A program made the translations under genes and the position numbers. DNA of 64,000 nt from Ignavibacteriota bacterium (lineage in GTDB: Bacteria; Bacteroidota; Ignavibacteria; Palsa-1295), in the NCBI GenBank assembly GCA_963736195.1, contig CAVTNP010000001.1:690133-754132 (forward strand). Direction: 5' to 3'. The notes below the pieces were generated by a model. That model was not told where the DNA came from. It did no database searches and saw only the letters and a list, made by a program, of their open reading frames with translations. Shown in pieces: positions 10,898 through 41,378 of the stretch. Every line of letters begins with the position of its first letter. The stretch's first letter is position 1.

Positions 10898-11569
10898 TTA
10901 GTCGTTCTCAACATACATCTTCAGTACTTCCGCGGCCTTGCCTGGATTTGCTCCTTGATCATGAATTTGTTTTGGAGTTTTTCCGCTGGCATCCGGAAGA
11001 TTCACAATTTTATCTGCTATATCCATCCCTTCGGTCACTTGGCCAAATACAGTGTAATTCTTATCGAGGAACCCTGCATCGGCTACACAAATAAAGAATT
11101 GGCACGATGCTGAATTTGGATCATTCGTGCGTGCCATCGAAAGGATACCGCGGGAATGATGAATTTCGTTGAATTCAGCCATGAGCCGGTTGGTGCCATT
11201 ATTCCCCATGCCGTCGTTGGAATAATCATTATCCTTCGTATTTGGATCGCCGCCCTGGATCATAAATCCCGGGATGACGCGGTGGAAATACGTTGAATCG
11301 TAAAAATGCGTCTTGGCAAGATTGATGATATTCGCGACGTGGTTCGGGGCAACCTTCTCGAAAAGCTGAAGCTTGATCGTGCCTTGCTTGGTAACGATCA
11401 CCAGGTGCCGTTTCGGATGCGCAGTGTATTGATCGAGTTTTGTGCCGGTAATAGGTGGTTTGTAGGGGTCTGTGCCCATAATGGTGGTGGCGTGCGTAAT
11501 GGTTAGTGTTGCGGCGCAAACGAAGATTGCTGCCGTGAAAAGGATGGAAAATTTGATCTTTTTATTCAT
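10898..11569 (-). CDS. Cyclophilin-type peptidyl-prolyl cis-trans isomerase with signal peptide
   Basis: HRVIPGFMIQGGDP and SMARTNDPNSASCQFFI blocks. N-terminal signal peptide MNKKIKFSILFTAAIFVCAA. Confidence 0.85.
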   Translation of the reverse strand: MNKKIKFSILFTAAIFVCAATLTITHATTIMGTDPYKPPITGTKLDQYTAHPKRHLVIVTKQGTIKLQLFEKVAPNHVANIINLAKTHFYDSTYFHRVIPGFMIQGGDPNTKDNDYSNDGMGNNGTNRLMAEFNEIHHSRGILSMARTNDPNSASCQFFICVADAGFLDKNYTVFGQVTEGMDIADKIVNLPDASGKTPKQIHDQGANPGKAAEVLKMYVEND

Positions 11570-11644
11570 GCAATGGATTGATTGTGAAAATCATAAAATA
11601 AGAAACTGCCATAGGCCAAAAAGAGCCAATCCGTTCCCGTTTCG

Positions 11645-12445
11645 TCATTGAATTGTAATTTCTCCAGTGGGGCTGTTATAGCTGCCGGGCACCACGCTGC
11701 CATCAGGTGCAATAAGTTGCAGCTTCACCGTATGCTTACCCTGCGTGAGCCCGGTAATGTAGTAGGGCTGCCATTTCGTGATGTCGGGCATGGAGGTTGT
11801 ATCAACCCATACCTTCACCTTATAGGCGTCGGGTGCCAGCGTGGCATTCGACACATAGAAATCGAGCAGCACCTTCGAATTCTCACCGGAGGCATAAGTG
11901 CCCTTTGGCCTGGAATACGTCAGCAGCGGACCGTTCAGATTATTCGCTTGCGCGGTATCGCTCGATTTGCTGCCGACGTAAAAAGTCCTGGTCGCGAACG
12001 AGTGTGGCGATTTAATGCTCTCGTGCCAGGAAAACGATGGAAAAGCCCTGATCGTATGCATCCCCGGTGCAAGCAAGCCAATATTGAATGGCTCGCCGCT
12101 CTTGTAGTTCGCCATGTAAGGCTTGCTATCCACGATAACGTGAAAATGCTGTCCCTGCTTGGAGTACGCGATGCCCATGGTGCTATCGCCATCGGTGTGG
12201 ATGCCCAGGTCGGTTCCCGAAACCTGCATGACGATCCGCACGGAATCGCTTGCATCCTTCAGAGTCTCGCCCTCTTTAGGCGATACAATGCTGAGCGAAG
12301 CATCAGGATACGCCCGCTGCGGCGCTGGAATAATAGCGATATGGCTTGTGGTATCAACAGTCGCTTGTTCAGTGCGTTTGCCGCACGAAACGAGCAAAGT
12401 GGAAAGAAGTGCTGCACTAAAAACGACGGAAAAAGTCTTACGCAT
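11645..12445 (-). CDS. Hypothetical lipoprotein
   Basis: The likely start MRKTFSVVFSAALLSTLLVSCGK carries a lipobox. The upstream extension to 12571 in the track ORF is probably not translated. Confidence 0.5.
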   Translation of the reverse strand: MRKTFSVVFSAALLSTLLVSCGKRTEQATVDTTSHIAIIPAPQRAYPDASLSIVSPKEGETLKDASDSVRIVMQVSGTDLGIHTDGDSTMGIAYSKQGQHFHVIVDSKPYMANYKSGEPFNIGLLAPGMHTIRAFPSFSWHESIKSPHSFATRTFYVGSKSSDTAQANNLNGPLLTYSRPKGTYASGENSKVLLDFYVSNATLAPDAYKVKVWVDTTSMPDITKWQPYYITGLTQGKHTVKLQLIAPDGSVVPGSYNSPTGEITIQ

Positions 12446-35245: not shown

Positions 35246-35277
35246 GTTTCTGTTGAAATAAATAAGAATTGGCCTTG

Positions 35278-35312
35278 AAAGGGGAGGACGTGTTCCTCCC
35301 CTTTCTGTTATT
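35278..35312 (+). terminator. Rho-independent terminator (GGGGAGGAcgtgtTCCTCCCC + TTTCTGTTATT)
   Basis: A GC hairpin followed by a T-rich tract directly after the Kelch gene stop. It marks the left edge of an AT-rich island. Confidence 0.65.
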
Positions 35313-35366
35313 ATGTATTTTGGCGATTATATACTTTGCTCAACCGACAGAAGGGGGTGTTGATAA

Positions 35367-35570
35367 TTGAGTATCACTGAGTGGCTTGGCTTCAGCTTCT
35401 TTCTGCTGTTCCTTTTTCTTCTCGTATGGCTTAATTTGGCTTTCCTCTACTGGGCTATTAAGGCGGTGTTTTACGGAGATTATGCTGAGGAATTTGCTGA
35501 ATCTCTCTCTGAGGTCATAATAACGGGACTTGAAGCGACCATACTTGGTAGTATAAGTGGGACGCAATAA
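35367..35570 (+). CDS. Possible small membrane protein (67 aa, TTG start)
   Basis: Strong SD AAGGGGG 9 nt upstream of TTG. It has a single hydrophobic helix and an acidic C-terminus. The overlapping minus-strand ORF 35340..35633 is an alternative, so coding status is uncertain. Confidence 0.3.
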   Translation: MSITEWLGFSFFLLFLFLLVWLNLAFLYWAIKAVFYGDYAEEFAESLSEVIITGLEATILGSISGTQ

Positions 35571-36000
35571 AATGGTATAATAATTTCGATCATACTGACG
35601 CTTTTCAGTATAGCGGTAATAATCCTTTGCCATGCCGTGATACTCAATATTTATCCAGCATTTAATTTACTGTTTTTCCTCATTATCCGTACTCTAAAAA
35701 TCACGAAGCACGTCATTGTTTTCCTTAGGAATTTCAAGTGGAACATCGGTTTTCATTTGAGGCGCAATCGTAATGGTTCCAAGGTTCCATTCGAAGAGGA
35801 CAAGGCTCAGTTTGAGCGTTTCGAATCGCTCCTCGAAAAATTCGTCTCCGCTCCCTCCGACAAGGTAAAGGGAATACTCAAAAAGGAGAAGAAGCTAAAA
35901 ACGCGCAAAATTCGCCCCAAATGAAGCTTTTTTAACGGCTCAAAAGATTGTGCAAAATTGTTTCGTATATTTGTAGCGTCATTTTGCTGGCGGCGACACT

Positions 36001-36699
36001 ATGGCAGACAATACTATCCGATTCAGACAAATCCCCGAAGACGCTCTTCGCGCTTTCGAGGATTTGTTTGTTATGGGGGAACCATTGTTTGAGCAACTTG
36101 ACGGTGCTATTGATGCGGCTCCGAAGAAAGTCAAAGCATCTGCCGTCGTAGCTTATCTTGCGAAGAAAGTTCAGATACCACTTGAATCGCTTTCGGCGTT
36201 AATTGGTTCCCTACAAGGACTTCTTGGCGCAATGGATTCTTACCATGTAACTGCCGCGCAAGCCAGCAAGGATGTTGTTGAAACCTCTCTTAAGCTATCA
36301 AAAACGGAGAAGCTGATAGCCTCTGATTCTCCCAAATACGAGCAAAGACTTCTTAGCCTCTTATCGAAACCTCAACTTGTTTTACCGTCAAAGGCGTTAA
36401 GTTTATTGAACGATCATGCACGAGTATTTGGCAATGTGCGAATAATATCTGATGTTAGACCCGTGTTTGGTGAAGACACAAGTGCCCCTCCCCATGCTTG
36501 GATGCTCTATCATACCTTACACTTTAGATGCAATCTTGGCAAAGAGGTAGAGGATGATATTTTTATTGCCCTTGATACCGCTGATCTTCGCGCCCTTGAA
36601 CATGCTGTTGCTCGCGCAACCAGTAAACAAAAAGTTTTGATCTCGCAATTTAAGCAGCTTAAATTGGATTACGTAACTCCTGACGAGGTGGAGGCTTAA
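36001..36699 (+). CDS. Hypothetical protein, first gene of a three-gene cassette in an AT-rich island
   Basis: 232-aa ORF with no recognizable motifs. Its stop (TAA) is 1 nt before the next ATG (TAAAATG). Confidence 0.5.
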   Translation: MADNTIRFRQIPEDALRAFEDLFVMGEPLFEQLDGAIDAAPKKVKASAVVAYLAKKVQIPLESLSALIGSLQGLLGAMDSYHVTAAQASKDVVETSLKLSKTEKLIASDSPKYEQRLLSLLSKPQLVLPSKALSLLNDHARVFGNVRIISDVRPVFGEDTSAPPHAWMLYHTLHFRCNLGKEVEDDIFIALDTADLRALEHAVARATSKQKVLISQFKQLKLDYVTPDEVEA

Positions 36700-36700
36700 A

Positions 36701-37201
36701 ATGTTAGAGCCAATCTTCATTCCAACACGGCATTTGAGAGGACGCTGGGAGGTCTCTCGTAATAACTTCGAAGTTGAGCCATTAAAGCGAGAGATTCCTT
36801 TCGATGGATTGCTTTGGGTCGCCTTTTCTAAATGTGAAATTGATTTAGAAGTTGAAAGTAAATTTAAAAGCTTACAGAGGAGTCTCTTAGATGAAACAGC
36901 GGGAACATCCCACTTTAGGGATATTCTTATGAGTCAGTATTACCGATGGATGATTCGCTTAAGCGAGCCGCTAATTCCTATCTTGCTCCGCGAAATTTTA
37001 CTTGACCCCTCTCCGATCTGGGTTTCTCTTTTGAGGGACGTAGCAGGACTTGACCCCGTTCCCTCTGAAGAGAGAAGCGATTACACGAAAGTGGTGTTGC
37101 GCTGGCGCGATTGGGGACTTATTGAAGGATATTTACGTGACGAACGAAACAGTCCCTCTTCGGCTGAAAGTTGGCTTGGGCCTCTTACATCCGTTAACTG
37201 A
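36701..37201 (+). CDS. Hypothetical protein, second gene of the cassette
   Basis: 166-aa ORF, translationally coupled to the upstream and downstream genes. No recognizable motifs. Confidence 0.5.
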   Translation: MLEPIFIPTRHLRGRWEVSRNNFEVEPLKREIPFDGLLWVAFSKCEIDLEVESKFKSLQRSLLDETAGTSHFRDILMSQYYRWMIRLSEPLIPILLREILLDPSPIWVSLLRDVAGLDPVPSEERSDYTKVVLRWRDWGLIEGYLRDERNSPSSAESWLGPLTSVN

Positions 37202-37658
37202 TGACAACCATTCTCCTTGTAGTCCCGCCGATGCTGCGTATAATTGCTTTGCTTGGGCAGCGGGAATCACCCATGTCAACTGGGGGCCATATCCTGATTA
37301 TGGCTTCACTTGGCCAGAAGACTTGCCGAGAGATGAAAAGGAATCAACCTATATCGCCCTTTTTGAAAAGGAGCGGTTTGTAGTTTGCGAAAACGGAGAA
37401 CCTGAGTCTGGTTATCAAAAAATAGCCCTTTTCGTAAAAGACGGATTTGTAGAACATGCGGCGAGGTTGCTCGAAAGCGGCGATTGGGCAAGTAAGCTTG
37501 GATTTGAGCATCTTGACATTATTCATACTTCTGTTGATGTCGTTGCAGGAAGTAGGTATGGCATTCCTAAGATTTATATGAAGCGCGAAAGAACAGAGTC
37601 CGACCCAGAGGCGCCCTCTATTGCCAAATTCCCGCCGAACCCACTTAGTAGCCGATAA
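37050..37658 (+). CDS. Hypothetical protein with a candidate Cys/His active-site pattern (AAYNCFAWAAG ... H), third gene of the cassette
   Basis: The ORF as listed in the track. The true start is probably an internal TTG/ATG around 37160-37200, overlapping the previous stop. The motif SPCSPADAAYNCFAWAAGITH loosely resembles papain-like/NlpC-P60-type cysteine hydrolases. This is inference only. Confidence 0.4.
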   Translation: MTPFPLKREAITRKWCCAGAIGDLLKDIYVTNETVPLRLKVGLGLLHPLTDDNHSPCSPADAAYNCFAWAAGITHVNWGPYPDYGFTWPEDLPRDEKESTYIALFEKERFVVCENGEPESGYQKIALFVKDGFVEHAARLLESGDWASKLGFEHLDIIHTSVDVVAGSRYGIPKIYMKRERTESDPEAPSIAKFPPNPLSSR

Positions 37659-37815
37659 TTACTGGTTGAGCGAGGTATATAATCGACTATATTTTCGGTG
37701 CCATTTACGGCACCAAATTGATCCCGTGGGTTGTTCATAGGTTCGGACTTATCTACCGGAACTGGTGTTCCACCCGAACAACCCCACAACATTTTCATTG
37801 GAAAGCACTTTTACT

Positions 37816-38904
37816 ATGCAAGATACAGCAACGAGAGACGCGCGGAAGAAAGCACTCACTATCGCGATGGACGCGATCGAGAAGAACCACGGCAAGGGAT
37901 CGGTCATGCGTTTGGGCGATCAGCCGCATGTGAAAGTGGATGTGATCCCGACCGGCTCGCTTTCCATCGATGCTGCGATCGGCATTGGCGGCGTACCACG
38001 CGGCCGCGTGATCGAGATCTTTGGGCCGGAATCCTCCGGCAAAACCACGCTGTGCCTGCATATCATCGCGGAAGCGCAAAAACGCGGTGGCAACGCAGCA
38101 TTTATCGATGCCGAACATGCGCTGGACGTGAATTACTCGAAGCGTCTCGGCGTGAACGTGGATGAGCTTATTCTTTCTCAGCCCGAATTTGGCGAGCAGG
38201 CACTGGATATTCTGGAGCAGCTCGTGCGATCCGCTGCGCTTGATGTTATCGTTGTCGATTCCGTTGCCGCGCTTACGCCTCGCGCAGAAATTGAAGGCGA
38301 AATGGGCGATGCGCAGATGGGATCTCATGCCCGGCTTATGTCGCAGGCCATGCGGAAAATTACGGCCGTTATTGGCAAATCCGGCACGACGGTTATTTTC
38401 ACGAATCAGCTTCGCTCGAAGATCGGCGTGATGTATGGCAATCCGGAAACCACCACCGGTGGAAACGCGCTGAAATTTTACGCATCGGTGCGCTTGGATA
38501 TTCGCCGACGTGATGTCATTAAAGAAGGCACGGAAATCATCGGAAATCGCGTACGCGTGAAAGTGGTGAAAAACAAGCTTGCACCGCCCTTCCGCGAAGT
38601 GGAGTTCGACGTGCTCTATAACGAAGGCATCTCGAAAATGGGTGACATGATAGACGTTGGTATCGAGAACGACATCATTCAGAAATCTGGCTCGTGGTTC
38701 TCCTTCGAAGGCGAGCGCATCGGCCAGGGCCGCGAATCCGTCAAGGCATTCCTGAAAGAAAATGCCGATTCCTTCGCGAAAGTCGAAAAAGCAGTGCGAA
38801 AGAAACTGGGCATCGAGATCGAGGGAATCGCTGGTAACTTGGCGACCAATGGCGCTGTCGCGGCGGGAGGGGTGATCGAGGAGAAGTCCAATAGGAGGAA
38901 ATAA
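37816..38904 (+). CDS. recA: Recombinase RecA
   Basis: Walker [11 protein letters not shown]1/L2 loop blocks, and near-complete RecA conservation. The ATG at 37816 is preferred over the track start at 37765. Confidence 0.95.
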
Positions 38905-39416
38905 TGACCACAATAGAATACAACGAAAAACAGACTATTAACGAACTGATGCGTGTCATTAATCACGCAGAAGGAACACCGATTAATGAGCTTCGCATTA
39001 TTGACCTTGCCGAATGCGGAAGCGGAATTTACATCTTTTATCAGCAACAGGCAAATAAGCGGTGGTATTTTTACATTGGGAAGGCATCCAGTGAGAGCTT
39101 GGTTCAAAGGATTGCGATTCATTTTGATACAAGGATTGAGATGGCATCGAGCGGGATTCTAAGCAAGGTTCAGCGTTCAGAAGCTATCGCCGATCAATCT
39201 GCATTCTCGCTTATCGACGCAATTCGACTCTTGGAAAAGAAAAATACGAGACTGATTTTCATTACTATTTCACCGTTGCAAGAGTGCAAACGGGTCGTGA
39301 CAAAATTGGAATACTTCCTCATAAATGCTTATGACACTCCAAAGGTGTATAACGTGCGGAGGGGTAAAGCAGCTCCCTCACTCGACATTCCACTCAAAGA
39401 ATTGATTCCTAACTAA
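38904..39416 (+). CDS. GIY-YIG nuclease-domain protein, translationally coupled to recA
   Basis: GIYIFY...(9)...YFYIGKA, then a conserved Arg (LVQRIAIHF) and downstream Glu/Asn (KLEYFLINAY), as in UvrC/I-TevI-type GIY-YIG domains. Its ATG overlaps the recA stop (ATAATGA). The region is AT-rich. Confidence 0.7.
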   Translation: MTTIEYNEKQTINELMRVINHAEGTPINELRIIDLAECGSGIYIFYQQQANKRWYFYIGKASSESLVQRIAIHFDTRIEMASSGILSKVQRSEAIADQSAFSLIDAIRLLEKKNTRLIFITISPLQECKRVVTKLEYFLINAYDTPKVYNVRRGKAAPSLDIPLKELIPN

Positions 39417-39417
39417 A

Positions 39418-39837
39418 ATGCAATCAGCCATGATTACGAATTATTCGAATTGCAACAAAAGGGCGCGCTCATTCGATTTAATTATCGAGTCTTTCTGTCT
39501 ATTGGCACTAATTACCCTCACTTCGGGATGTGTGGGTAAAAACGATGGAGGAATAAGAGGCGTCTTTATCTGCCAGAACCCTGACAAGAGCGGCCTTCCT
39601 ATGTCTAATCTTGAATTCAGGAGCGACGACATTGTCGCATTTTTGCCGCTTTTACCAGACGGAAGCACGACGCCAATGAATTATAAAATTGAGGGGAATT
39701 TTATCTACTTAAAACCGATACCTGGAATTGTAACTCCGATGGTGGTGGATCTGTTGACAACCCTTAAAATCGTCAGTGACACCAGTATAGAAGAGGATGT
39801 TCAGAGCAACCCTTATGTGTGGGTGAAGAAGCAATAG
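39418..39837 (+). CDS. Hypothetical lipoprotein
   Basis: Hydrophobic N-terminus with lipobox LTSGCVGK. No recognizable motifs. Confidence 0.4.
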   Translation: MQSAMITNYSNCNKRARSFDLIIESFCLLALITLTSGCVGKNDGGIRGVFICQNPDKSGLPMSNLEFRSDDIVAFLPLLPDGSTTPMNYKIEGNFIYLKPIPGIVTPMVVDLLTTLKIVSDTSIEEDVQSNPYVWVKKQ

Positions 39838-39866
39838 TTAAAGAATCTCAAGAAAAGATGCTACAA

Positions 39867-39905
39867 CGCAAAGTACATGCTTGCTGTTATGGGGCCGACG
39901 ATCAA
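39867..39905 (+). pseudogene. Remnant 3' end of a fourth copy of the tandem lipoprotein family (..YMLAVMGPTINK*)
   Basis: The 39-nt tract translates to a peptide near-identical to the C-terminus of the following paralog (..ISMLAVMGPSVNR*). No N-terminal portion is present. Confidence 0.4.
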
Positions 39906-39937
39906 TAAGTAAATTTTCAAGATTGGAGGATTTGAAA

Positions 39938-40324
39938 ATGCTTCGAGCATTGCTGTTTATTATTATTGCATTCACGCTTTCCGCGTGTGGGGCCTCGAAA
40001 TACACCCCGTATTCCAAATGGTCGTTGCCCGCGCATGGCTATTCGGAAGCCCAACTTGATTCGACGACCTATCAGGTGAGTTATGTCGATCCTTCTGCCG
40101 ATGTATCGGATCGTTTTGCTCTTTACCGTGCAGCGGAGCTAACCAAGCAGCGTGGCTTCGATTATTTCATTGTTGCTGATACCCAGCCCAGTTCCACTGA
40201 TGACGATTTGTCGAAAGTCACTAAGACGGTTCGTATGTATAAAGGAGATGCTCCTGCCGATAACCCGCAGGCCTACAACGCAATCTCCATGTTAGCTGTT
40301 ATGGGGCCGTCGGTGAATAGATAG
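39938..40324 (+). CDS. Lipoprotein, tandem paralog A (GYSE..LDSTTYQV...RYALYRAAELT.QRGFDYF family)
   Basis: Lipobox LSACGAS. The conserved core is shared with the next two genes. Confidence 0.6.
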   Translation: MLRALLFIIIAFTLSACGASKYTPYSKWSLPAHGYSEAQLDSTTYQVSYVDPSADVSDRFALYRAAELTKQRGFDYFIVADTQPSSTDDDLSKVTKTVRMYKGDAPADNPQAYNAISMLAVMGPSVNR

Positions 40325-40367
40325 AAATTAACCGCGCGATGTTTCGCGCATAGAAGGAGATGAATTC

Positions 40368-40766
40368 ATGATATCGATCCGATTAACTGCTTCGTGCATT
40401 GCGTTACTGCTTCTTTCCGCGTGTGCAACGCCCTACGTTAAGAATGCCGGTGGGCTGTTTAGTGGCACCGGCTATCAGGATATTCCGATCGATTCTACAA
40501 CGTACCGTGTAGTGTTTTACGGAAGTCATGGTGGCACCAGCCTGGAATTGGTTGATCGCTACGCGTTCTATCGTGCTGCAGAGCTTACCGCCGAAAAAGG
40601 GTATGATTATTTTGTGATCGTGCAAACCGGGGCGGACGAAAAACAGCGCATTGCGTGGAATACCGTTCGCATGTCGAGGGTTCCGCCAACGAGCGAGGAT
40701 TTTGCCGTGTTCGACGCACAAACCGTGCTACGGGAAATGGCGCCTTACGTTCAACGATCGGAGTAA
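40368..40766 (+). CDS. Lipoprotein, tandem paralog B
   Basis: Lipobox LLSACAT. Conserved DSTTYRVVF...RYAFYRAAELTAEKGYDYF. Confidence 0.6.
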   Translation: MISIRLTASCIALLLLSACATPYVKNAGGLFSGTGYQDIPIDSTTYRVVFYGSHGGTSLELVDRYAFYRAAELTAEKGYDYFVIVQTGADEKQRIAWNTVRMSRVPPTSEDFAVFDAQTVLREMAPYVQRSE

Positions 40767-40847
40767 GGAGCGAATGAACTAGATCTGCTGTTTTAGGATT
40801 AAATTTCTGTAGCTTCGATTTCTTAAAAATACCTTCACCCTATTTCC

Positions 40848-41378
40848 ATGAAAAACCATAAGAGCGCAACGATCCTTATTGGAATTGGAATTTTGTTTTT
40901 AGCTTCGTGCGCAACGAAATACGCGCCGGCCACCGGCTCGTTCTGGGACGGCCATACCGGCTACTCCGAGGTAGCGCTTGATAGCACTACCTGGCAGGTT
41001 ACCTTCTGCGGCAATAATAACACTTCGGATGATGTCGTGAACCGCTACGCGTTGTACCGTTCGGCGGAACTTACTTCTCAGCGAGGCTTCGATTACTTCG
41101 TTGTGCTTGATAATAATGACGTCGCAGCGCTGACTTCGACCGTGAATCGTAACAAGACTCAGCAGACCCAGATAGAACACACCGTCGATCCGCAAACAGG
41201 CAAAGTGATCCCTGTGGCAGTTACGACTACTAACTCGACATCAACGGTCAACACGCAAGCGGCACACACCGTGACGAAAACCATTCGTATGTTCACGGGC
41301 GCGCGGCCTGCGGATAATCCCAACGCTTTCGATGCCAGATCCATGGTTACGATGATGGCGCCGAGCATTCAACGCTAA
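40848..41378 (+). CDS. Lipoprotein, tandem paralog C (with T/N-rich insertion)
   Basis: Lipobox FLASCAT. Conserved DSTTWQVTF...RYALYRSAELTSQRGFDYF. Confidence 0.6.
   Translation: MKNHKSATILIGIGILFLASCATKYAPATGSFWDGHTGYSEVALDSTTWQVTFCGNNNTSDDVVNRYALYRSAELTSQRGFDYFVVLDNNDVAALTSTVNRNKTQQTQIEHTVDPQTGKVIPVAVTTTNSTSTVNTQAAHTVTKTIRMFTGARPADNPNAFDARSMVTMMAPSIQR

Follow-up and report, generated by a model that had tools for sequence, protein, structure and literature searches.

What is a low-GC block of overlapping genes doing directly in front of recA, and does its position there mean anything? The locus lies in a 64,000-nucleotide stretch of the genome of an Ignavibacteriota bacterium (GenBank assembly GCA_963736195.1, contig CAVTNP010000001.1, positions 690,133 to 754,132 of the forward strand; hereafter the window, to which all coordinates refer unless a relative is named). 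A preliminary description made from the sequence alone had reported an AT-rich island upstream of recA with three translationally coupled genes lacking any recognizable domain, and had put it forward as a horizontally acquired system for defence, toxin immunity or the response to DNA damage. Two of the three genes, here designated A, B and C, do encode recognizable proteins: C matches DUF7689, and A matches the COMMD-like protein of Protein Data Bank (PDB) entry 9Q6A. Both of these components had been catalogued already; what is new is the operon that links a COMMD-like protein, B and DUF7689. The three genes are as follows.

36001-36699, plus strand: gene A, 232 aa, prokaryotic COMMD-like protein, assigned by phmmer and by a family profile against PDB 9Q6A.
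36701-37201, plus strand: gene B, 166 aa, from a family without a Pfam model, a homologue of which immediately precedes C in 67 of the 76 loci compared.
37137-37658, plus strand, GTG start: gene C, 173 aa, DUF7689, predicted papain-like Cys-His hydrolase with an NlpC/P60-like fold.

The product of gene C matched the Pfam family DUF7689 (PF24738) with an E value of 1.1e-26 (94.3 bits against a cut-off of 22.6), and the family threshold was likewise passed by all 146 of its sampled relatives. An exhaustive HMMER search at E values up to 1e-3 recovered at least 2211 cluster representatives (50 % identity), nearly all of them single-domain proteins of 145-180 aa. AlphaFold2 prediction of C from the single sequence was unusable (pLDDT 45), and the alignment of 146 family representatives was used instead, yielding a model with a pLDDT of 88 and a pTM of 0.84. 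In this model Cys37 opens a helix (residues 37-41), His107 lies in a strand (104-111), and Asp127 and His130 lie in a further strand (126-130). This is the arrangement of a papain-like alpha+beta fold, with the nucleophilic cysteine at a helix N-terminus and the histidine on the adjacent sheet, and Foldseek comparison with PDB and viral models returned the same NlpC/P60-like papain picture. Residues H107, H130, W59, K95 and W117 were invariant among the 146 representatives, a further seven (C37, N36, S119, K120, D127, E90 and R150) were at least 90 % conserved, and the family motifs read TSPxxxxYNC[IF]AWA, HAARQ, WxSKLG and DIxH. A papain-like Cys...His pattern had been suspected in the third gene; with the model and the conserved Cys37 and His107, C is predicted to be an intact papain-fold Cys-His enzyme. 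No match to NLPC_P60 or CHAP was found for C at E values up to 1, nor for any of the 146 relatives at E values up to 0.01, where other peptidase families gave no match either, which argues that DUF7689 is a distinct clade of the papain-like superfamily. Pfam likewise returned nothing for C beyond DUF7689; wall-binding domains such as SH3 or LysM were thus not found, and the N-terminus of C was judged by eye to be non-secretory. We accordingly take C to be cytoplasmic and peptidoglycan to be an unlikely substrate. The Pfam entry describes a domain of unknown function, and in the literature library searched no paper mentions either DUF7689 or TIGR04255, a family that recurs below; the fold, the catalytic residues and the obligate partner B were worked out here. 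The C-terminal tail of C (RTExDPExPS[IV]A..PPNPL; window positions 37596-37655, residues ~154-173) was modelled with low confidence. It is kept in the lineage of the window (L002, L003 and P0008; L numbers denote loci and P numbers proteins) and absent from the other DUF7689 proteins examined, and could be a short docking motif.

Translation of the three genes is tightly linked. At the A/B junction the ATG of B begins 1 nt past the TAA of A (TAA-a-ATG), with GAGGTGGAGG just upstream, and this part of the earlier gene calls stands, as do the coordinates of A and B. The third gene, which had been placed at about 37170, instead starts at GTG 37137. This start is kept in four lineages, where the protein opens VT[TN]E.VP, and a purine-rich, AAGGA-like stretch lies 7-10 nt upstream of it. 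Given this start, B and C overlap by 65 nt and a frameshift is unnecessary. Similarity of the C frame running into B in tblastn searches had raised the possibility of a programmed +1 frameshift fusing B to C. This was rejected because an in-frame stop directly before the GTG in L003, and nearby stops in L005, break the frame just before the conserved GTG with its purine-rich stretch; the apparent conservation upstream of the GTG is explained by the overlap with B.

To examine the association of B with C, 76 loci were compared, drawn from metagenomes and from Bacteroidota, Cyanobacteria and Planctomycetota; C-alignment scans contributed 60 of the metagenome loci and 11 genome loci (cyanobacteria and one Gemmatales planctomycete). 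When the ORFs of all six frames were searched with profiles, B was found immediately upstream of C in the 67 loci noted above. Among the nine loci without B, eight were on contigs that end within ~110 nt of C and the ninth (L076) has a partial C match only. The Cys codon of C fell 38-152 nt (median 81) past the B stop in the 63 scorable loci, and in nearly all of these the start of C overlaps or abuts the stop of B. A metagenomic representative of 297 aa, P0030, is a natural B-C fusion, with a B-like part at ~20-105 and DUF7689 at 140-260, and suggests physical association only. Such a fusion is also obtainable by a single indel between overlapping genes. On this distribution B-C is, as far as comparison of loci can tell, an ancient, mobile and obligately paired two-gene module that forms the conserved core of the cassette, and it displays the adjacent, small, co-directional paired genes with coupled translation by which type II toxin-antitoxin (TA) operons are recognized.

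B itself contains a conserved core of ~95 residues (F..L...W..ET...S....HPAYQ.IIGMG....PLILREL...P.HWFWAL..ITG..PV...G....AWL.WG), the central motif of which reads HPAYQxIIGMG...PLILRELxxxPxHWFWAL..ITG..PV...AWLxWG, and its residues W135 and W138 are invariant. Searches of Pfam, PDB and PADLOC returned no match for B, and no consistent Pfam family emerged among 50 B sequences. Profiles of B and C compared with PDB sequences gave chance matches only (tau repeats and designed helical proteins), with nothing relevant among them. A distant DUF7689 domain was also observed on a Phocaeicola dorei plasmid (NZ_CP072249.1, L077 4830-5828) and on 10 other Bacteroides conjugative plasmids. It shares 28 % identity with cyanobacterial C (Pfam E value 9e-27) and makes up the N-terminal portion of a hypothetical protein of 332 aa, whose gene lies two genes upstream of one with a MAC/perforin (MACPF) domain.

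The product of gene A had no match in Pfam, NCBIfam, PADLOC or PHROG. As a single sequence it nonetheless matched PDB 9Q6A (COMMD-like protein MBK5214510) in phmmer with an E value of 1.7e-6, residues 11-221 aligning to 25-235 of 240, and a profile of the seven-member A family gave an E value of 6e-28 over 213 residues. In the reverse direction, BLASTP of a 9Q6A fragment found all seven members (E values 1e-9 to 5e-18). The aligned stretch takes in the helical HN part as well as the COMM part, and the conserved A block RIISDxRPxFG...H...LD..DL...RA..K falls in the latter. By homology, A is a prokaryotic COMMD-like protein with a predicted helical HN domain and a predicted COMM domain at its C-terminus. 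Bacterial COMMD-like proteins, whose structures were first described in 2026, assemble into octameric and decameric rings that resemble the COMMD core of the eukaryotic Commander complex; they were presented as prokaryotic roots of that complex, with their function stated as unknown, and gene context was looked at only in Myxococcota (with genes like those of type VI secretion systems, T6SSs), Chlamydia and Haloarchaea, with no predicted partner (Liu et al., Nat Commun 2026, PMC13392464). From the same homology, A should form homo-oligomeric rings. It ends in TPDEVEA, which is encoded by the purine-rich GAGGTGGAGG and does not vary among the four closest lineages. Only three close relatives of A were found among 5.8 billion proteins, each with B and C after it. 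Pattern scans of GTDB genomes and JGI metagenomes added no further relatives; the distant members of the family came only via the C-based scans.

Mapping of the cassette in relatives of the window showed that A, B and C occur together at three different chromosomal sites, none of them near recA.

L002 (Bacteroidota metagenome-assembled genome): A-B-C between a hypothetical gene and lgt.
L003/L004: A-B-C between a PBP1 gene and DUF3501.
L005: A-B-C beside other genes.

The cassette travels as a unit, and recA loci without it exist, in agreement with what had been expected of a horizontally acquired system. Beyond these close relatives the first gene is variable. A COMMD-like gene precedes B in 10 loci, including distant members of 20-24 % identity in L058, L065-67 and L070. 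A TIGR04255 protein stands directly upstream of B-C in 13 loci (L020, L025, L051, L059-61, L063-64, L017, L030, L039-40 and L045), by which this 'sporadically distributed' family gains a recurrent operon partner. A small FRVVHADG family precedes B in five loci, one member giving a weak, sub-threshold match to DUF3467, and the remaining loci have other genes, or none, before B. Homology of A to the TIGR04255 or weakly DUF3467-like first genes was rejected on hhalign probabilities of ~0.1 %, and on the same grounds the three first-gene families share position, not ancestry. IS1595 transposases adjoin the module in five loci. Other neighbours include MNT/HEPN, Uma2, HigA-like, Fic/Doc and Imm30 genes, an Eco57I/MmeI-type restriction-modification enzyme, an R2K ATP-grasp protein and a PD-(D/E)XK nuclease, and a PIN/DUF433 pair lies near the cassette in L003.

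Within the window, the island and its borders comprise the following features.

35277-35305, plus strand: intrinsic terminator of the upstream gene for a Kelch protein with a type IX secretion system (T9SS) tail; 12-bp stem with seven GC pairs, then a T-rich tail; outside the island, in its left neighbour.
35317-35345, no strand: left arm of an imperfect inverted repeat, 29 nt.
37664-37692, no strand: right arm of the inverted repeat and right end of the island, 6 nt past the C stop.
37697-37714, no strand: palindrome GGTGCC-N6-GGCACC, operator-like, in the native recA upstream region and outside the island.

The island (35317-37692; 2376 bp, ~2.4 kb) has a GC content of 0.440, compared with 0.503 for the whole window. 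The lowest GC of the 64 kb coincides with its position, and only 0.16 % of equal-sized sliding windows are as low. GC at third codon positions is 0.379 in gene A, the lowest among 51 long ORFs in the window, and 0.428 in both B and C; those ORFs average 0.549 (sd 0.057). The compositional test therefore upheld the reported AT-rich island, and composition, occurrence at unrelated sites and absence from recA in three relatives together mark the cassette as a foreign, horizontally acquired and mobile operon. The terminator reported for the Kelch gene is present, and Pfam identified Kelch and Por_Secre_tail domains in that gene. The arms of the inverted repeat, represented by the sequence TCGATTATATACYTYGCTCAACC, are complementary at 24 of 29 positions and bracket the island exactly, their likeness ending at the arm boundaries. 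Across the 64 kb just two copies of its 23-nt core were found, where shuffled sequences predict none. The right arm overlaps a sigma-70-like promoter match (37666-37693) facing recA. An insertion sequence (IS) would show terminal inverted repeats, a transposase and a target-site duplication; the repeat does lie at the island ends, no transposase was found within the island and no target-site duplication was evident. No similar inverted repeat was found around the cassette in L002, L003 or L005, and the repeat was consequently rejected as a shared transposon end. It was also observed that the left arm lies directly 3' of the stop of a minus-strand ORF and the right arm directly 3' of the C stop, both genes reading outward, with one hairpin just outside each arm; the repeat may be the end of an element, a site for a regulator or something else.

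The hairpin at about 37700 that had been taken as the island boundary is the palindrome listed above, and it belongs elsewhere. It has no T-run and so is not an intrinsic terminator. The palindrome was exact in L082 (3351-3368) and L083 (5899-5916), carried two mismatches in L078 (~5890), and lay 72-119 nt upstream of recA in four Kapabacteria-like genomes; in the window it has no second exact copy. Since it is kept upstream of recA in relatives without the island, the palindrome belongs to recA, as a candidate operator in this lineage (possibly a LexA or SOS-type box), and as part of the recA control region it places the end of the island at the right repeat arm. The insertion point is delimited on the recA side only, because upstream synteny is lost at 83 % recA DNA identity. 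RecA cluster names indicate Candidatus Kapabacteria.

What the cassette does is a matter of interpretation. Under the reading that we prefer, a ~2.4-kb cassette with 29-nt inverted repeats would have been acquired by a Kapabacteria-like genome between a gene for a secreted Kelch protein and the native recA control region. B would be made first, in stoichiometric coupling to C, and would bind C directly, as their pairing, coupling and fusion lead us to infer, restraining or targeting it. As an enzymatic effector, C would break a bond (amide, peptide or thioester) of a target in the cytoplasm. The exchangeable first gene would supply an oligomeric scaffold, sensor or regulator for B-C, in the form of a COMMD-like ring here and of TIGR04255 or weakly DUF3467-like proteins elsewhere. 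B-C would then be a TA-like or defence ('conflict') unit with C as effector, B as partner and the first gene product as scaffold, sensor or regulator, a reading that we regard as evenly poised between right and wrong. It is favoured by the architecture of two small, co-directional, overlapping genes, by their sporadic distribution across phyla and by the conflict-gene neighbourhoods, and the hypervariable first gene gives it the likeness of a modular defence system.

Several observations weigh against this reading. Neither a DNA-binding domain typical of type II antitoxins nor any Pfam family was detected in B, and a TA pair accounts for the natural B-C fusion no better than a two-subunit enzyme does. 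In L003 the copy of C (11177-11713) has Gln in place of the otherwise invariant His107 of the VEHAAR motif, a change that may reflect inactivation of this copy or a fault in the assembly. Tight coupling of A to B is confined to the lineage of the window, the distant COMMD-like-B-C loci having gaps of ~110-140 nt. Among catalogued anti-phage systems (PADLOC v2) there was no significant match for A, B, C or the TIGR04255 and DUF3467-like first genes, and A, B and C were also without a match in NCBIfam or PHROG. No homologue was found in INPHARED phages or, with one pattern, in IMG/VR. In the plasmid database PLSDB, C from the window found nothing and cyanobacterial C found only the distant fused form on Bacteroides plasmids.

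The alternative that survives best is that B-C is a two-subunit enzyme and no conflict system, with C as the hydrolase and B as a subunit that binds its substrate or regulates it. Its task would be peptide or amide trimming, recycling of cell-wall precursors or peptides, or removal of protein modifications, and the first genes would encode an assembly platform or a substrate. The P0030 fusion, the lack of a detected DNA-binding domain in B and the lack of TA or defence model matches are all consistent with this. It fits less well with a cassette of low GC that is patchily distributed across phyla, occupies differing insertion sites, is absent from close relatives and lies in neighbourhoods rich in IS and TA genes, with a variable first gene and no common metabolic neighbour. 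We consider this account somewhat unlikely, if a serious competitor to the TA-like or defence reading.

An extension of the TA-like or defence reading concerns the first gene. Eukaryotic COMMD rings dock CCDC22 and CCDC93. By analogy, the COMMD-like ring could be the platform of an unrecognized three-component bacterial conflict system, binding B and thereby controlling the papain-fold hydrolase; we offer this as speculation that is probably wrong in at least some part.

Interbacterial antagonism is harder to reconcile with the data. Here C would be secreted as a papain-like toxin to which B confers immunity in the cytoplasm, and a secretion apparatus would use the COMMD-like protein as adaptor or chaperone. 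The fold of C does resemble Tse1, Tae3, contact-dependent inhibition (CDI) toxins and the papain-like toxin/immunity pair 9L5U, and the plasmid-borne form of DUF7689 sits in a larger protein near a MACPF toxin gene. C is, however, a single domain of 173 aa in which Pfam found no PAAR, Rhs, MIX or T9SS domain. Neither here nor in those loci of relatives that were inspected does it have a VgrG, PAAR or CdiA gene as a neighbour, and the cyanobacterial and planctomycete loci are without secretion-system genes alongside. The putative immunity gene, moreover, precedes and overlaps the toxin gene. The absence of a delivery domain and of secretion genes, together with the partner-first gene order, makes secretion very unlikely.

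A functional tie to recA or the DNA-damage response, by which the cassette would be co-regulated with recA or modulate it, is essentially excluded and the earlier suggestion of it largely refuted: the cassette does share the strand of recA, 158 nt upstream of it, and no intrinsic terminator was found in between, but this adjacency is unique to this genome, the cassettes of L002, L003 and L005 are not near recA, three relatives (L078, L082 and L083; RecA ~93 % identical, 83 % DNA identity) have no cassette at recA and each a different upstream gene, the conserved palindrome is outside the island, and the other recA flank also holds lineage-specific low-GC ORFs, pointing to an insertion hot spot. 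The adjacency is incidental, since relatives carry A-B-C elsewhere and have recA loci without it, and it carries no functional signal.

The downstream flank of recA is itself unusual. The distance from recA to recX is 2.5 kb here, compared with 0.5 kb in L078, and the interval (38904-41378) is filled with lineage-specific ORFs of low GC (0.42-0.43), from which we take the recA flanks to be insertion-prone. These ORFs include one of 170 aa, with an ATG that overlaps the recA stop and weak GIY-YIG-like matches only, and others of 139 aa and 176 aa. The position after recA is taken by a 139-aa gene in L078, matched here by an ORF of 147 aa, and by a DUF4160 gene in L082.

The left part of the island, upstream of A, contains three minor features.

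35340-35633, minus strand: ORF of 97 aa, homologous to the C-terminal third of a protein (252 aa) that is encoded next to the L002 cassette.
35757-35924, plus strand: possible small ORF of 55 aa with a TTG start and a basic C-terminus, directly upstream of A; uncertain.
35966-35973, plus strand: candidate operon promoter TATATTTG, matching the Bacteroidota-type -7 promoter motif TAnnTTTG, 28 nt before the A start.

The product of the minus-strand ORF had no family match in Pfam, NCBIfam, PADLOC or PHROG. It is 32 % identical to residues 170-250 of the L002 protein, the N-terminal 170 residues of which have no counterpart here, and by this comparison it is probably what remains, after 5' truncation, of an accessory gene found with the cassette in one relative (L002). 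The small membrane protein that had been proposed at 35367-35570 is the antisense shadow of this ORF. In L002 (8511-9498, minus strand) a gene for an XRE-type helix-turn-helix protein of 74 aa and the gene for the 252-aa protein lie divergently upstream of A-B-C; the latter protein belongs to no family that we recognized and has a hydrophobic N-terminal stretch, and only its tail survives in the window. An ORF of doubtful status had also been called at 35637-35924. Its last ~37 codons are weakly conserved in L003/L004, and no conservation was found in the rest, leaving the shorter ORF listed above. The last 37 residues of that ORF are 51 % identical to a 51-aa ORF with an ATG start at the same position in L003/L004 (E value 1e-5 in a small locus database); the reverse search was weak (E value 0.25), and Pfam returned no match.

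These results give the bacterial COMMD-like proteins a conserved operon context and a set of partners. They also bring forward B-DUF7689 as a large, unstudied family that is strictly paired and mobile, with a TA-like architecture and a swappable first gene, and so as a candidate new conflict system. The adjacency to recA is in itself of no consequence. Were the COMMD-like ring indeed the platform of such a system, this could represent the ancestral job of the COMMD fold before its recruitment into the Commander trafficking complex, and B-DUF7689 would be a new and widespread effector pair for TA or defence, in which the sensor or scaffold gene can be exchanged (COMMD-like, TIGR04255 or DUF3467-like).

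Comparison with known systems places each component beside a familiar relative from which it departs. A resembles the prokaryotic COMMD-like protein MBK5214510 of a Flavobacteriaceae bacterium (PDB 9Q6A, 9Q6C and 9Q6D) in its full-length alignment and in being a single-copy bacterial gene of ~230 aa. It differs from the solved COMMD-like proteins in sharing only 22-32 % identity with them, and in being translationally coupled to B and DUF7689, a triad present in at least seven lineages; the COMMD-like papers report no such operon (PMC13392464). The predicted fold of C is like that of NlpC/P60 enzymes (MEROPS C40, PF00877) and other clan-CA papain-like hydrolases (6BIM, 4XCM, 3H41, Spr/MepS and LytE), from which it is set apart by the lack of a sequence-model match, the lack of a wall-binding domain and motifs of its own. 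Papain-like toxin/immunity structures were among the fold matches of the C model, and B-C shares with such pairs (9L5U, the T6SS pairs Tse1-Tsi1 and Tae3-Tai3, and the CDI toxin 8SSM) the combination of a papain-fold enzyme with a small dedicated partner. The likeness to type II and three-component TA operons (omega-epsilon-zeta, and the toxin-antitoxin-chaperone (TAC) systems) extends to the small genes read in one direction, the stop of one overlapping the start of the next, the putative neutralizer in first place, the sporadic, mobile and low-GC character of the module, its location among other TA and defence genes, and the optional third gene in front. A DNA-binding domain for autoregulation is common, though not universal, in type II antitoxins. 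B-C departs from TA operons in that no such domain was detected in B, in its natural fusion, and in that both of its families are new to TA systems.

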